A stretch of 45,440 nt of DNA. Origin: a virus. Taxonomy: Duplodnaviria > Heunggongvirae > Uroviricota > Caudoviricetes. Of this stretch, positions 28,181 to 42,577 are shown one piece after another. The notes under the pieces are model-generated. The model was given only the letters and a program-made list of their open reading frames with translations, ran no database searches and was not told the DNA's origin. A program made the translations under genes and the position numbers. Each line of letters begins with the position of its first letter. The first letter of the stretch is position 1. The stretch lies in IMG/VR virus record IMGVR_UViG_2526164690_000022; one strand, given 5' to 3'.

Positions 28181-28323
28181 CCTCTCACTCCATTATTTAC
28201 CGAATAAAAAAGCTGCGGTGCCTGGTGCCTCCAGGTGACGTTAACCAGTTAACAATTAACGCCGGGATGTTTGACTTAACCACTAAGGAGGATTGTTTTA
28301 ACTGTTCCGCGTGCGCTTAGCCG

Positions 28324-28882
28324 CATTCACCGCAATGGTAAGAGCACTTGGCTGGCTGGGCGGCGATGACGCCTGTACGCATTTGGTGATCCGGTTCTGC
28401 TTCCGGCATTCGCTTAATTAGCCAAATACTCTTAACGTTGCACTGGCGGAGAGTAATGGAATCGAACCATCATCGCTTGCGCAATGGGACGGTTTTCAAG
28501 ACCGCTTGAGCACCATGCTCCCTACTCTCCAGTGATTGTGATGGTCGGTGCTGAACTCCGACACAGGGTTGTAGCAAGCCCCGCAAAGCGCGCACTACTG
28601 TAGTTGCGGCACATCAGCCTGTGCATTCACCACAATGTTGAGAACACTGGTTGTCACGCTGCAACGCAACATTTATTCATAGATTGGGATATGACCCCGT
28701 TACGCCAGTGTTCTCAACGTTGTGGTGCCGGTTACGGTTCCGGCCAGGCCTCTTCCTCAACGGGGTGTTCTCCATACGGACTACCGTTTATTGGTCGTTC
28801 CTGCGGTTTATGTTGTGAAGCCAGATGCTTATCTTCTGGTTGCTTCAAAGAGCTGCACTTCATCACAACGGTAAGAGCACTC
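28324..28882. repeat. Family of ~23-bp repeats flanking the tRNA genes (four clear copies)
   Basis: caccgcaatggtaagagcacttgg (28326), caccacaatgttgagaacactgg (28628), inverted copy ccagtgttctcaacgttgtggtg (28706), catcacaacggtaagagcactcg (28860); degenerate fifth copy near 26676. Confidence 0.55.
28444..28530 (-). tRNA. tRNA-Ser (UGA), class II with long variable arm; atypical D-arm
   Basis: GGAGAGT...GCGGTCTTGAAAACCGT...GGTTCGATTCCATTACTCTCCGCCA; anticodon stem-loop matches E. coli serT as recalled; D-loop short. Confidence 0.6.
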
Positions 28883-28932
28883 GATGCATTTAAGCCAAGC
28901 CCCATAAGGGAGAATGCCCTTACCTGTTGTGT

Positions 28933-29008
28933 TGGTGCCGGTTAACGGACTCGAACCGCTGACATCCTGCTTACAAGGCAGGCGCTCTACCAACTGAGCT
29001 AAACCGGC
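28933..29008 (-). tRNA. tRNA-Thr (UGU)
   Basis: GCCGGTTTAGCTCAGTTGGTAGAGCGCCTGCCTTGTAAGCAGGATGTCAGCGGTTCGAGTCCGTTAACCGGCACCA; perfect acceptor stem. Confidence 0.85.
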
Positions 29009-29012
29009 AATT

Positions 29013-29099
29013 TGGTGGGGAGTGATGGAGTCGAACCACCCGAGTCGCAATGACAGTAGATTTACAGTCTACCCCGCTACCCCTACGGACTAACTCCCC
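29013..29099 (-). tRNA. tRNA-Tyr (GUA), class II
   Basis: Acceptor GGGGAGT/ACTCCCC; anticodon arm GTAGA-CTGTAAA-TCTAC; long variable arm; GGTTCGACTCC T-loop. Confidence 0.75.
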
Positions 29100-29104
29100 T
29101 AAAT

Positions 29105-29181
29105 TGGCGATGGTGGGTGGATTCGAACCACCGACCGACAGCTTAGAAGGCTGCTGCTCTATCCTACTGAGCTACACCATC
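29105..29181 (-). tRNA. tRNA-Arg (UCU)
   Basis: GATGGTGTAGCTCAGTAGGATAGAGCAGCAGCCTTCTAAGCTGTCGGTCGGTGGTTCGAATCCACCCACCATCGCCA. Confidence 0.85.
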
Positions 29182-30415
29182 ACTTGCCGGGTACGTCTCC
29201 GGCGAGGGCTTCCACCTCCGTATGCTTTTCGGCGCACCGCGCCCTGGCTGCAATTCGGTAACAGGGGATGCACAACCCTGGCTTCCAGCGTGATTAGCGC
29301 CTTCAGCATGACGGGATATACCCGTAGTAGGATGTTATCCCAGAAAGCCATTAATCAATGGCTGTTACGCGGGAGGGACGTAACAGGTAAGGGCGCTGAC
29401 CAGAAAGACCTGACCCTTCTCATTCATCTGGTTAATCACACCAGCGCCCTTGCCTGTTATGCCTCCCCGTTCCCTAATACACAGACGGGGACACTCTGCG
29501 GTCGATTTTTTGACGGGGGACGACTCATACCCCGTGGCGTCTGGCTTCTTAGGCCGCTACCATCATCAGATCATCGTTTGCATTTACTTTAATGGTCGGT
29601 TTCTAAACCGCCGCAAAGTCGCTAACCATGACGAAAACCCTAAAAAAGCCCACCCGAAGATGGGCAAATACGCTACATCTCACACAAGAAAGAAGCCGAC
29701 TGCCTGAGCTGGATTCACTTTCAAATGCCCGCAGAAAGGGATCACAAGTCGGCTTCTTTCTTGATGCGGCACTCTCTCCGCCCGTCACCGCTCTGTCTCG
29801 GTTGTCGCGTTTGCCACGCCAGCCGTAACGAGGTTTAAAGTCTTTACACGTTTCCATCACTCGACTGCCGTCTGTGGCTGTTCGTTGCAGCGGGGGTGCC
29901 TCCCCCTGGGGATATCCCCGGCCTTACCCCATTCTTTCAAGACACAATGCAAGACCACATCCGCATAGGTGCATTACCGCAACATTAAGGAGACTCAGGG
30001 CAAAAGGTAACCGCCACAAAAATCCCTATGCCTCCTTAATGTTGAAGATGTGCATTGATGATTAGATGCAGCATGTACCGTTACTCTCTGCCGGACCATC
30101 ATCAATGAACACCTTAAAAAGACCTTCCGTGGCTCAACATGTATTGTCGTTTACTCCGCAAAGTGCTCTCTCTGAAACCACTTTCCGCACTAAACCTGCT
30201 GAACTTTGGCCTGCACGGTGCCAAAGCGTGCTCTTGCATTACCATACTTTTCTAACACTTTAATTTGTTAAATGCTGGTGGGCGAACAATAACCAATAAG
30301 TGACTATCAAGCCCAGCAAGCGAAACGTGGGTACTGCCCACCAGCAAGGAAAATTCTATGTTAAGTTATCTCCACAATCAATACATTCGAATTGTGATTT
30401 TAGATTTCTAACACA
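29182..30415 (-). ncRNA. ORF-free, hairpin-rich region at the 5' side of the tRNA operon (candidate structured leader / stable RNAs)
   Basis: No credible ORF over 1.2 kb; several long perfect inverted repeats with 40-50-nt loops (e.g. 17-bp stem 29685-29701/29748-29764); operator-like motifs at 30250 and 30406. Confidence 0.3.
30250..30274. promoter_or_regulatory. Operator-like inverted pair ttctaaca-N8-tgttaaat
   Basis: Member of the dispersed TTCTAACA family; upstream (minus-strand sense) of the non-coding region and tRNA cluster. Confidence 0.35.
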
Positions 30416-31624
30416 TTATTTCCCATAAAGATCTTCTACACCCCCATTCTTCTTATCCCATTCGTTCGCCCATACCCGGCAAGCGTCAATGATTTCCTGA
30501 CGACGATCTCCTTGCATGAACGGGATGCTTTCATGGAAACAGCTTGGAATGCAGGCCACACTGAATACAGTATCAAACTCCGTCTGCTTGATTGCCTCCA
30601 GCGTCTCCGGACGCATTTTTAATTCATCGATTGGCGCATCCTTAGAGTCCATAATCCGGCGATATAAGCGCGGAAAATCCGTCTCCAGGTACGCCATAAT
30701 TTTATCTGCGAGACATTCGTCTATGTCGGTATTCCAGTCCTTTTCGAAGCCCGGCAGGCGATAGTAAAGCGGCGTTCCCCATACCGATGGGATCACATCC
30801 ATCGTTAACAGGCGATTGGTTCTGATTTGTTGATGGTAATTAGCCGTCAACAGTGCTTCGCCACGCTGCCCTGTTTCCGTAACCAGGCCGTGCGGATACT
30901 CATGGATGTAGGCAATGGCATCCCTTCCATCATACATGAGTGGAAATGTCTCTGGTCTTTGTCCCATGCCACAAGCACGGTTCAGATCGTGACCAAGCTG
31001 TGAGCACTCTCGCTTTAATGTTTCGATAATGCTCTGCGCTGTAGCCAACTTTTTACGCAGTGTGACGCCTTCGCCTTGATAATCAATGCATTGCTGATTG
31101 AGCTTGGTTAAACGCTCTTTTAGTTCCCGGCGCTCTCTTTTCAGCGCGCGGTTATCCTTCTCCGCAACATCCAGCCGCTTTGTCAGGCTGGGCGGATAGT
31201 CTTTTTTGTAACGGTTCAAATCGGCTTCGGCAGATTTACGCAGTGTATTTGCCTGTTCAAGACGCGCTTCCAGATTGCCGATCTCATTACGCATATTCGC
31301 GGCAAATTGATTAACTGCATCACCCAGGCTTTCAACTGTCGCTGATACGCCTGTGACTTGTGAAAAACGGATCAAGCCATCATTAACGGCTTGTTGGTAT
31401 TCCTCAAACTGATCCACCAGCTTATTGTAATCAACTGCCCCATCATCAAGCAGCTTGTTGATTTCCGCCACTAGGTTATCTGTAGTGGCAATGACACTCT
31501 CGTGCAGTCGCTTTGACAGGTCATCACCCGGATTCCGTTTCTGTATAAGAGCGATTTGTGTGCGCAGCGTTTCAATTGCTGTCGAGATAATTTCCAGATT
31601 AGAAGTATCAGTGTGTTGACTCAT
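30416..31624 (-). CDS. Hypothetical protein with N-terminal coiled coil and C-terminal globular domain
   Basis: ATG 31624 (MSQHTDTS); the listed ORF extends to GTG 31639; heptad-rich N-terminal half; no known motif. Confidence 0.45.
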   Translation of the reverse strand: MSQHTDTSNLEIISTAIETLRTQIALIQKRNPGDDLSKRLHESVIATTDNLVAEINKLLDDGAVDYNKLVDQFEEYQQAVNDGLIRFSQVTGVSATVESLGDAVNQFAANMRNEIGNLEARLEQANTLRKSAEADLNRYKKDYPPSLTKRLDVAEKDNRALKRERRELKERLTKLNQQCIDYQGEGVTLRKKLATAQSIIETLKRECSQLGHDLNRACGMGQRPETFPLMYDGRDAIAYIHEYPHGLVTETGQRGEALLTANYHQQIRTNRLLTMDVIPSVWGTPLYYRLPGFEKDWNTDIDECLADKIMAYLETDFPRLYRRIMDSKDAPIDELKMRPETLEAIKQTEFDTVFSVACIPSCFHESIPFMQGDRRQEIIDACRVWANEWDKKNGGVEDLYGK

Positions 31625-31649
31625 TGCTGTTCCCGTCACTTTGTTAAAT

Positions 31650-42247: not shown

Positions 42248-42299
42248 AGTTACGGCCTCACTAACAGGTTTAACAACCTGCTACCCGCTGTCAAACAGG

Positions 42300-42470
42300 T
42301 GGCAGGACGTGACAGGGTTGACAGACTGGCGTTAGTGAAACCAGCAGGCCGAAGCCTCCCCATCACGCCCCACCATAATTCGGGCGTAACGCGGTTTACG
42401 GACACAAAAATACCGCAATATCGGAAATCTGCGGTTGTCCGCACTAACATTCAGGCTGTCAAACCTGGTC
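42300..42470 (-). ncRNA. c4: c4-like antisense RNA locus with a1/b1 and a2/b2 target repeats (immI)
   Basis: Minus strand: ttgacagc + gttagtg upstream (a1/b1), complements tcactaac + ctgtcaa (b'/a') at 42318-42342, then ttgacagc and gttagtgagg (a2/b2, the icd RBS); UUCG hairpin aggc-ttcg-gcct. Confidence 0.45.
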
Positions 42471-42577
42471 GCAGAATTTGCTACGACGGCATGAATATAA
42501 GCCTGAAAACATGGAAGATCAACTAAAAATTTCAGCAATGGATGACTTCAGTCGATGATGCAGATCATACATTCCGA

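Follow-up and report, generated by a model that had tools for sequence, protein, structure and literature searches.

The accepted view of tmRNA is that a tRNA-like and an mRNA-like domain must be united in it, either within a single molecule or across two base-paired pieces. Phages can carry derivatives of it: the tmRNAs of mycobacteriophages keep the tRNA-like domain, and the RNA of phage DS6A consists of that domain only, without a tag (PMC4131195, PMC11915505), proof that a phage can carry one half of the molecule. The RNA described here would keep the opposite half, in phages whose hosts are Enterobacterales. Two further phage systems resemble the locus under study. Phage T4 co-transcribes with its tRNAs two small stable RNAs of unknown function, species 1 and 2 (rnaC and rnaD), and in phage P1 (NC_005856) Pban and its operator stand upstream of a homologous ban-operon leader (the "dicF-like region", Pban/Op72).

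The stretch of DNA that we analysed (hereafter the window; 45,440 nt) is, by sequence comparison, a D6-like member of the P1 family. Its tRNA genes lie on the minus strand, the first of the operon being tRNA-Arg(UCU) at 29105-29181. Read in that direction, the gene-free stretch at 29182-30415 precedes them and heads the tRNA operon, where the first-pass annotation had placed it. That annotation also held the stretch to be free of ORFs, and indeed no credible gene was found in 29182-30415; no genes are annotated there in D6 and ~100 RefSeq plasmids, and the open frames of the region gave no Pfam or PHROG matches. This 1.2-kb stretch before the tRNA genes probably encodes structured RNAs. It comprises two units, both read on the minus strand, unit A (about 30415-29648) and unit B (29643-29182), with an intrinsic terminator between them (29648-29665) that had been missed at first reading. 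Positions 29182-29668 are 91% identical to P1 68855-69347, within the P1 interval from Pban to tRNA-Asn, and the terminator is common to both. The dicF-like segment of P1 lies mostly upstream of the point at which this homology ends, and the window has a ~700-nt D6-type RNA in its place; the Rfam DicF model had no match in the window at 29000-30600 (E-values up to 10) or at the P1 locus (E-values up to 0.1). On balance, we lean towards reading the 1.2 kb as two minus-strand RNA units, of which unit B is a phage trans-translation tag template that lacks a tRNA-like domain of its own.

The first ~190 nt of unit B (29456-29643, minus strand) form a conserved tmRNA-like module found in many phage groups: unit B is shared with P1, and its module occurs also in Ackermannviridae, N4-like, T1-like, lambdoid and 7-11-like phages. 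Model R1, a covariance model made of Ackermannviridae, N4-like, T1-like, lambdoid and 7-11 sequences with no P1-like sequence among them, matched the window in a single copy at 29456-29643 on the minus strand (116.2 bits, E = 4.4e-31, model positions 1-179), and P1 scored 114.7 bits with the same model. Related sequence was present in 206 phage records in one search, in 442 in another, and in 660/5426 E. coli genomes, including 140 chromosomal places; among species-representative bacterial genomes there were four exact motif matches (Pseudocitrobacter, Escherichia, Pantoea and one MAG). This tag-bearing RNA is common to many unrelated phages of enteric bacteria and is unannotated. We found no description of the module in Rfam 15, in annotations or in the literature searched, the P1 annotation is silent on it, and that literature held neither a tmRNA-like RNA of enterobacterial phages nor an account of the P1/D6 leader. 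Hundreds of phage and plasmid records thus contain an RNA gene that their annotation lacks. The module is open to experiment, since model phages carry it (P1, and lambdoid prophages in pathogenic E. coli), and it explains extended "gene-free" intervals already noted next to phage tRNA genes, an example being the 2-kb gap of CBA120 (PMC3184105). The likeness to the T4 tRNA cluster drawn in the first-pass annotation holds for context and goes no further: rnaC and rnaD are downstream of the T4 tRNAs whereas the window region is upstream of its own, no similarity was found, and model R1 had no match in T4 68000-75000, the tRNA cluster that includes both RNAs.

At the heart of the module is a short reading frame (29549-29581, minus strand), GCA AAC GAT GAT CTG ATG ATG GTA GCG GCC TAA, specifying ANDDLMMVAA and a stop, with neither a start codon nor a ribosome-binding site and with a degron-like C-terminus. 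As in tmRNA (SsrA; RF00023, permuted RF04321, RF01849-51), a GCA resume codon follows UAAAU, and the short tag starts with ANDx and ends in hydrophobic residues followed by AA or VA (E. coli ANDENYALAA). The module therefore has the parts of a tmRNA mRNA-like domain, namely a resume codon, a short tag ORF and a stop, and it differs from tmRNA in that its tag is always 10 codons long, is phage-encoded and is found beside tRNA genes or in late-operon leaders. In the Rfam scan suggested by the first-pass annotation, RF04321 (tmRNA_permuted) matched beneath its gathering threshold of 47, with 24.1 bits for the window and scores of 26-34 bits for other phages. The Rfam models that matched the tag stretch were tmRNA models only, their alignment to the module covered the tag part only, and RF00023 had no match. 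Alignment to E. coli ssrA likewise detected similarity solely around the tag (z-scores of -0.1 to 4.4, depending on the phage).

The frame was kept, at 10 codons plus a stop, in 230/230 copies examined, and the 19 variants of the tag peptide follow the pattern A-N-[DE]-[DEN]-x-x-x-x-[AV]-[AP]. Single-nucleotide neighbours among the tags comprised 15 synonymous and 9 non-synonymous changes, and a stop codon was always present, with UAA, UGA and UAG interchanging. Judged from these sequences, the tag appears to be under selection at the level of the peptide. This bears on the proposal that the locus is an ordinary leader of the ban/tRNA operon, made up of hairpins for RNase III/E/P processing and an attenuator, in which the tag is an untranslated fossil of a captured tmRNA fragment. 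Such a leader would fit the position between promoter and tRNAs, the internal terminator, the Rfam scores under the gathering threshold and the lack of a tRNA-like domain described below. A fossil, however, would decay, and neither a tag length, frame and stop that are constant in each of the 230 copies nor the synonymous excess and the interchange of stop codons is what decay would leave. Moreover, T1-like and lambdoid phages carry the module either under its own promoter or with no tRNA genes close by. Phages MK54 and AB4P2 are cases with a promoter of its own, and in HK633 and an O26 prophage it sits between Q/PR' and the holin gene. We therefore regard the leader and fossil proposal as rather unlikely.

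Downstream of the resume codon, the structure of the module also follows that of tmRNA, in which a stop codon in a hairpin loop is followed by a pseudoknot. The stop codon of the tag occupies the loop of a hairpin with a GGC/GCC stem (29543-29555, minus strand), analogous to tmRNA helix 5, and this stem covaries across phages (GGC/GCC, AGCC/GGCU, UGC/GCA and CGC/GCG). It is followed by an H-type pseudoknot (29501-29534, minus strand), in which stem 1 pairs CGGGG (29534-29530) with CCCCG (29518-29514) and stem 2 pairs the loop sequence GUCG (29524-29521) with CGAC (29504-29501). Both stems of the pseudoknot vary in a base-paired manner, with exchanges of C-G/U-A, G-C/C-G/A-U and A-U/G-C in stem 1 and with CCGA/UCGG, CCAG/CUGG and CCAA/UUGG as stem 2 in another subtype, so that the succession of a stop codon in a helix (H5) and a pseudoknot is present and both elements covary. 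Ahead of the tag, the comparison did not establish a pseudoknot (PK1). Further downstream lies a conserved hairpin, UCCCCGU..ACGGGGA with a GUGUAUUAG loop (29464-29491, minus strand). These comparisons demonstrate the module as a family, its structure and the constraint on its coding sequence.

The part of unit B that lies 3' of the module is more variable, and attempts to align full-length RNAs globally and to fold their consensus were rejected because this part is too divergent. It opens with a long imperfect helix (29372-29468, minus strand), the first of the inverted repeats of the first-pass annotation (29372-98/29442-68; 27 nt, 81% complementary), which has a conserved base and a variable tip. 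This 27-bp hairpin has homologues in lambdoid and T1-like phages and covaries within P1-like sequences, one of its pairs being C-G in 34 and U-A in 16. The 3' domain of the RNA (29182-29371, minus strand), common to P1 and in part to Ackermannviridae, extends as far as the 5' end of tRNA-Arg, where RNase P presumably cuts. Unit B would accordingly be a ~460-nt RNA whose 3' end is presumably freed by RNase P cleavage of tRNA-Arg.

What sets the module apart from tmRNA is that its conserved part is only ~190 nt long and that no T-arm, G3-U70 pair or terminal CCA was found for it. ARAGORN at default settings detected no tRNA-like domain in the window or in the 230 copies, and detected 61 true tmRNAs in the same set of fetched loci. 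At lowered thresholds it called "permuted tmRNAs" around the tag, which we rejected, as their tRNA-like domains were implausible and plainly spurious calls appeared alongside. A separate tRNA-like gene was not found by Rfam E-value scans of the whole window, of five loci and of the complete genome of phage CS01, which carries the module and had zero tRNA-like matches. Duplex prediction between the module and E. coli ssrA gave complementarity no better than that of shuffled sequence.

The one element that recalls an acceptor is in the 5' domain (29593-29638, minus strand), which consists of GUUUUCG (29638-29632), a variable hairpin UCG..CGA, UUUGCGG and AGAAAC-CG-ACCA (29604-29593), and which possibly forms a short stem followed by ACCA. 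The locus could on this basis encode a complete, very divergent and possibly two-piece tmRNA, whose tRNA-like part is the 5' stem NNGUUUU/AGAAACNN with ACCA, exposed by cleavage just before the tag. ACCA follows the stem in 82/88 unique copies; of the two outer pairs, which are of several types, one forms in 67/88 and the other in 60/88; and the motif UUCG..CGAC..UUUGCG resembles the tmRNA 5' region (as judged from the E. coli sequence). The order of an acceptor part and then the tag also matches permuted tmRNA genes (PMC11915505). Against this, there is no T-arm, the third pair is G-C rather than the G-U of G3-U70, and stem and ACCA are missing from 10/98 variants; the window's own copy has a G-G mismatch in place of the outermost pair, leaving at most 6 bp. 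As neither ARAGORN nor Rfam detected a tRNA-like domain, and as cleavage after ACCA is putative, we consider a complete tmRNA of this kind distinctly unlikely.

In the reading we favour, in which unit B is a tag template without its own tRNA-like domain, the module would correspond to the mRNA-like half of tmRNA, with its GCA resume codon, 10-codon tag, stop codon in a hairpin loop, pseudoknot and further helices. Because the tag has neither a start codon nor a ribosome-binding site, it would most likely be decoded by trans-translation, on ribosomes stalled during phage development, adding a phage-specified tag. Since the module comes without a tRNA-like domain, ribosome entry would have to use a partner, for which the candidates are host SmpB together with the tRNA-like domain of host tmRNA, or, within the 5' domain, a cryptic mini acceptor stem that bears ACCA. 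We put forward more tentatively the wider proposal that in P1, D6, ViI-like, N4-like and T1-like phages and in lambdoid EHEC prophages, the template joins the trans-translation of the host in trans (either by way of host SmpB and the tRNA-like domain of host tmRNA or by way of a mini acceptor helix released by cleavage) and so rewrites the degradation tag on proteins rescued during infection. A module selected for its tag and yet devoid of a tRNA-like domain would imply either a new way of loading a template on the stalled ribosome or a cryptic minimal acceptor, and an in-trans tag template, if true, would be a split tmRNA of an undescribed kind.

Unit A, in turn, is confined to D6-like phage-plasmids; in E. 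coli it was found on ~90-kb plasmids only, in 99 genomes, where it is unannotated, and outside D6-like plasmids no homologue was found other than a 72-nt match in Klebsiella phage Kp4865-1. A consensus scan predicted a sigma-70-type promoter at 30353-30381 on the minus strand (TTGATT, 17-nt spacer, TAGAAT), both hexamers of which are invariant in 11 homologues (82-100% identity) that vary in the spacer. The operator-like motifs noted in the first-pass annotation at the upstream edge are present, with 6 occurrences in the window as compared with 0.38 expected, and two copies of this 17-mer flank the predicted promoter without overlapping it. Copy 1, TTTCTAACACATTATTT (30405-30421), shares bases with the pmgS-like gene's stop codon and precedes the -35 hexamer by ~25 bp, and copy 2, TTTCTAACACTTTAATT (30249-30265), an enriched and conserved motif, is ~90 nt downstream of the promoter. 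The GTGTTAGAAA core of the 17-mer is invariant across 11 homologues, and copy 1 is from its sequence a candidate repressor site. The 17-mer differs from the P1 operator, and by eye it does not align with the P1 operator consensus.

All four of the large inverted repeats that had been listed were recovered in a repeat scan of the region and are conserved, and three of them belong to unit A. The first structure of its transcript is a hairpin with a perfect 11-bp stem (30273-30346, minus strand; arms 30273-83/30336-46, 11 nt), nine pairs of which are invariant or G-U compatible around a variable interior. A fifth inverted repeat, absent from the earlier list, forms a hairpin with 21-nt arms (30042-30118, minus strand; arms 30042-62/30098-118, 86% complementary), in which the stem is conserved and the loop carries insertions and deletions. 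Next to it is a hairpin with a perfect 12-bp core and a hypervariable loop (29980-30044, minus strand; arms 29980-30000/30024-44, 21 nt, 86%), which in one homologue (L231) shows a compensatory change from A-U to G-C. The near-invariant, GC-rich hairpin block that follows (29680-29985, minus strand) has no conserved ORF, exceeds its flanks in conservation and forms the core of the D6-specific ncRNA or leader; it includes ggggatatcccc at 29908, a short GC hairpin already noted. Its last hairpin has a perfect 17-bp stem (29685-29763, minus strand; arms 29685-701/29747-63), shows two compensatory double changes in L231 and would be long enough to serve as an RNase III substrate. The unit closes with the intrinsic terminator, GCCCAUCUUCGGGUGGGC followed by UUUUUU (29642-29665, minus strand), which divides the two units.

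What we infer of the 5' end, processing and function of unit A is that the promoter between the 17-mers would be the presumed D6 counterpart of the repressor-controlled Pban of P1, and that its transcript would be a ~700-nt, highly structured leader or ncRNA with its 3' end at the 17-bp hairpin and terminator. Read-through of the terminator would lead into unit B and then the tRNAs, and unit A therefore probably acts as an attenuator or as a leader that is regulated and processed.

The upstream 667 nt fold more stably than mononucleotide shuffles on either strand (4.7 sd below on the minus strand and 5.95 sd below on the plus strand), and because both strands fold well, unit A was assigned to the minus strand from its promoter, terminator and operon context. 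Variable columns were rarer in stems than in unpaired positions (17.8% versus 35.9%; Fisher p = 1e-7). The covariance analysis across homologous phage-plasmids that the first-pass annotation had proposed gave four pairs with compensatory double changes as compared with 0.6 expected, and at least four such pairs occurred in 0/500 shuffles. The suggestion of structured RNAs at the head of the tRNA operon accordingly stands, in that the region is noncoding and its hairpins form part of a conserved, covarying RNA structure, and the T4 analogy attached to it does so for context only.

Two further explanations concern the region. Long perfect arms, strands that fold equally well and the inversion of the 65-nt hairpin segment 29980-30044 in one homologue (L182) could point to a role of the DNA itself, as cruciforms, a single-strand initiation site or an invertible switch. 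We consider this very improbable: stem changes that keep a G-U pair in the RNA of one strand only favoured the minus strand by 33 versus 8, a count biased by the structure prediction, the stretch is bounded by a promoter and a terminator that are conserved, and the evidence on the tag is inexplicable at the DNA level. It is just as improbable that protein genes once stood here and have decayed into a graveyard. P1 carries dmt where D6-like elements carry unit A, and a weak three-base periodicity of substitutions is seen in 29680-29985 (9/13 and 12-13/22 variable sites in one phase). Yet intact protein genes, which the first-pass annotation had named as the finding that would speak for such a graveyard, were looked for in 11 homologues and none was seen; no frame with a start codon is intact across all of them, and the best one has stops in 5/11. 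The lack of Pfam and PHROG matches, the conservation of 29680-29985 above its flanks and the covariation of its stems also argue against former genes.

A decayed repeat array, the other alternative raised earlier, fails as well, with only three short two-copy direct repeats in the region. The motif ccagaaag, said to recur three times, was counted twice (29340 and 29400), and two loops are closed by atcaca (29435 and 29741), in agreement with the earlier observation of loops ending in this motif.

Sequence comparison places the window in the P1 family of phage-plasmids, as a D6-like member. The 1234 bases at 29182-30415, described by the first-pass annotation as an ORF-free, hairpin-rich region, are 98.4% identical to phage D6 and align over their full length with the best-matching ~90-kb plasmids (98.5-99.9% identity); at least 80% of this query is covered in 106 plasmid records. 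Because the region lies between a pmgS-like gene (30416-31639, minus strand) and the first of five tRNA genes, all on the minus strand (Arg at 29105-29181, then Tyr, Thr, Ser and Met), it was read on the minus strand. It carries no annotated feature in D6 or the RefSeq plasmids, and the claim that it holds no credible ORF was borne out: the longest open frames span at most 85 aa, no frame stays open behind a start codon throughout the 11 homologues (the strongest candidate meets a stop at codon 4 or 5 in 5/11), and searches of Pfam and PHROGs with these frames gave zero matches. Homology with P1 is limited to 29182-29668 (91% identity), whose P1 counterpart is located between the C1-controlled promoter Pban/Op72 and tRNA-Asn, with a "dicF-like region" marked in the P1 record directly upstream of the homologous stretch. 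We refer below to the D6-specific part (30415-29648) as unit A and to the part in common with P1 (29643-29182) as unit B.

Unit A contains a sigma-70 promoter (TTGATT-17-TAGAAT; 30381-30353, minus strand), with invariant hexamers and a variable spacer in the alignment, and two copies of a 17-mer containing GTGTTAGAAA (30405-21 and 30249-65), both invariant. This 17-mer, TTTCTAACACWTTAWTT, occurs 6 times in the window as compared with 0.38 expected (9530, 19602, 30249, 30405, 31654 and 32696), and probably serves the D6 lineage as a repressor operator or as some other regulatory site. One copy is found directly upstream of the pmgS-like gene start. Near the end of the unit is a perfect 17-bp hairpin (29685-29763, minus strand), and an intrinsic terminator with a U-tract (29665-29648, minus strand), the first sequence in common with P1, closes it.

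All four inverted repeats reported by the first-pass annotation were recovered in place, together with a fifth (30042-62/30098-118); the short recurrent motifs are also present, although only two copies of ccagaaag were found, one fewer than stated. The proposal of a structured RNA proved correct in outline. In every unit A hairpin the stem is conserved and the loop is variable or carries insertions/deletions, the block at 29680-29985 is nearly invariant, and variable columns make up 17.8% of paired as compared with 35.9% of unpaired positions (p = 1e-7). The covariance check across homologous phage-plasmids revealed four compensatory pairs versus 0.6 expected, in the 12-bp and 17-bp hairpins. 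In one homologue (L182, 823-887) the 65-nt hairpin segment corresponding to 29980-30044 is exactly inverted; recombination or template switching could have flipped it between the inverted arms, or it could be a small invertible element.

Unit A was present in 16 of the fetched loci (82-99.9% identity) and in 99/5426 complete E. coli genomes, on a plasmid in every case and never annotated; the only phage relative outside D6 was a 72-nt match in Klebsiella phage Kp4865-1. Substitutions show a weak codon-like periodicity, which keeps an origin from a decayed gene barely alive. The promoter, terminator and conservation are established, and it is a solid conclusion that the region holds a leader RNA, structured and regulated, that is confined to D6-like elements. 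Transcription would proceed from a repressor-controlled promoter into a long structured leader or non-coding RNA, with termination as well as continuation into the tRNA operon by read-through; we infer the control by a repressor, the processing by RNase III and any regulatory role.

A relaxed Rfam scan yielded two weak tmRNA matches on the minus strand (tmRNA_permuted, 24 bits; beta_tmRNA, 12 bits), both in unit B and centred on UAAAU-GCA AAC GAU GAU CUG AUG AUG GUA GCG GCC UAA. This reads ANDDLMMVAA followed by a stop, as compared with ANDENYALAA in the E. coli SsrA tag. Sensitive BLAST showed that 29446-29653 is ~70% identical to unannotated DNA of unrelated virulent phages. In Ackermannviridae and N4-like phages this module (29456-29643, minus strand, in the window) resides in 1-3-kb gene-free stretches that also hold tRNA genes, on their upstream side in phiEa2809, Bp4 and 3M and on the downstream side in Pylas. 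It is further carried by Salmonella phage 7-11, T1-like Drexlerviridae, other siphoviruses and lambdoid phages, in the last between Q/PR'-qut and the holin gene (HK633, O26:H11 prophage), and the element occurs in 660/5426 E. coli genomes, where 140 of its sites are chromosomal. Phages MK54 and AB4P2 have a TTGACA-17-TAGATT promoter immediately before the module, which would place the RNA start a few bases 5' of the invariant GUUUUCG.

A covariance model of the module, R1, trained on 25 sequences with every P1-like one left out, gave a single full-length match in the window (29456-29643; 116.2 bits, E = 4.4e-31) and scored 114.7 bits in P1. It found nothing in the T4 tRNA cluster, including the stable RNAs rnaC and rnaD; the analogy drawn with that cluster holds for context only. 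It is a solid conclusion that the region also holds an RNA with a tmRNA-like tag whose family is widespread in phages and unannotated, and the existence, structure and coding constraint of this family are well supported.

Covariation extends across the structure. The hairpin holding the stop codon in its loop covaries over families (GGC/GCC, AGCC/GGCU, UGC/GCA, CGC/GCG), as do the outer stem that closes off the final tag codons (CUGG/CCAG versus CUGA/UCAG) and the hairpin directly 3' of the stop hairpin (CGGGG/CCCCG, GUGAGG/CCUCAU, GCAAGG/CCUUGU, CUGGG/CCCAG). The loop of this downstream hairpin pairs with a 3' segment in a covarying pseudoknot, as GUCG/CGAC in one subtype and as CCGA/UCGG, CCAG/CUGG or CCAA/UUGG in the other. 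The 27-bp hairpin at 29372-29468, the next helix of the unit B RNA, has homologues in HK633, MK54 and AB4P2 and covaries among P1-like sequences; the 3' part (29371-29182) is common to P1 and, partly, to Ackermannviridae. In IMG/VR contigs L062, L331, L343 and L349, a variant of the module has AUCAUCU where AGAAAC..ACCA normally stands; this sequence could pair with its complement GAUGAU (tag codons 3-4) and would then put the resume codon in a hairpin loop.

The tag is exactly 10 codons plus a stop in 230/230 copies from the fetched loci. Its 35 nucleotide versions encode 19 peptides of the form A-N-[DE]-[DEN]-x-x-x-x-[AV]-[AP], with 15 synonymous versus 9 non-synonymous single-step neighbours; the final Ala codons vary (GCG, GCC, GCT, GCA), and the stop is UAA in most copies and UGA or UAG in single ones. 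Direct inspection revealed in-frame stops upstream, and the frames opened by an out-of-frame AUG that overlaps the resume codon differ in length. Such a pattern characterizes a translated frame without a conventional start, as in the tmRNA tag; its use in trans-translation we would put at roughly even odds.

The Rfam alignment was confined to the tag, with no tRNA-like part found. At default settings ARAGORN detected a tRNA-like domain in 0/230 phage copies and called 61 genuine tmRNAs among loci with the same resume motif (UAAAUGCAAACGA). Many such genes, with longer tags (e.g., ANDNFAPSGYALAA), are seen in IMG/VR contigs L007-L126, and are either phage-encoded or mark prophage ends at ssrA. 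For the T1-like phage CS01, which carries the module, the complete 48-kb genome gave no tRNA or tmRNA-like match at E up to 1 and none with ARAGORN at a relaxed threshold, and complementarity to host ssrA was no better than that of shuffled sequence. The one lead is a cryptic acceptor in the 5' domain, where NNGUUUU can pair with AGAAACNN: ACCA follows this stem in 82/88 unique copies, and its two outer pairs form in 67/88 and 60/88. However, its third pair is G-C and not G-U, the 5' domain has no T-arm, stem and ACCA are absent from 10/98 variants, and the outermost pair in the window copy is a G-G mismatch.

Sequences resembling tRNAs were seen near the module in two phages. Phage 7-11 has two unannotated ones on the minus strand, ~200-330 nt 3' of the module, with canonical T-loops (GGUUCGAAUCC and GGUUCGACUCC) and, in one, an encoded 3' CCA; ARAGORN called neither. 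In Bp4, odd tRNA-like genes flank the module at 2782-2853 and 2412-2490 of the fetched locus (minus strand). ARAGORN labels them "tRNA-Ala(cgc)" and "tRNA-Cys(aca)", respectively, and the latter weakly matches the tmRNA model at its 3' end (15.5 bits).

The module corresponds to no Rfam 15 family, no RNA feature is annotated at it among the phage and RefSeq records listed as matches, and full-text literature searches returned no description of it. The phage tmRNAs in the tmRNA database papers are limited to mycobacteriophages, Bacillus phage G and the tag-less DS6A (PMC4131195, PMC11915505). We rate the module as the mRNA-like half of a tmRNA, phage-borne without the tRNA-like half.

In the window (29105-29181) and siphovirus MK54 the module is followed first by tRNA-Arg(UCU), in P1 (3925-4000 of the P1 locus) and D6 by tRNA-Asn(GUU). 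The Arg and Asn genes have an identical acceptor stem (GAUGGUG/CACCAUC), suggesting a cassette-like exchange of tRNA bodies. Downstream of tRNA genes in the window (28214-28334, minus strand), P1 (3149-3268 of the P1 locus) and the N4-like phage Bp4 (292-372 of the Bp4 locus), the Rfam sRNA family STnc100 gave matches of 39.4, 33.4 and 29.4 bits, respectively, below its gathering score of 47; this stretch may be another phage RNA in common. A second stretch of ~400 nt without annotated genes, between tRNA-Ser and tRNA-Thr (28531-28932), holds only short unconserved ORFs. At 42295-42500 (minus strand), matches at the Rfam gathering score identify C4 antisense RNA together with its target, the a1/b1 region (immI), and a sub-threshold isrK match overlaps them; the C4 RNA is the expected immunity RNA of the P1 family.
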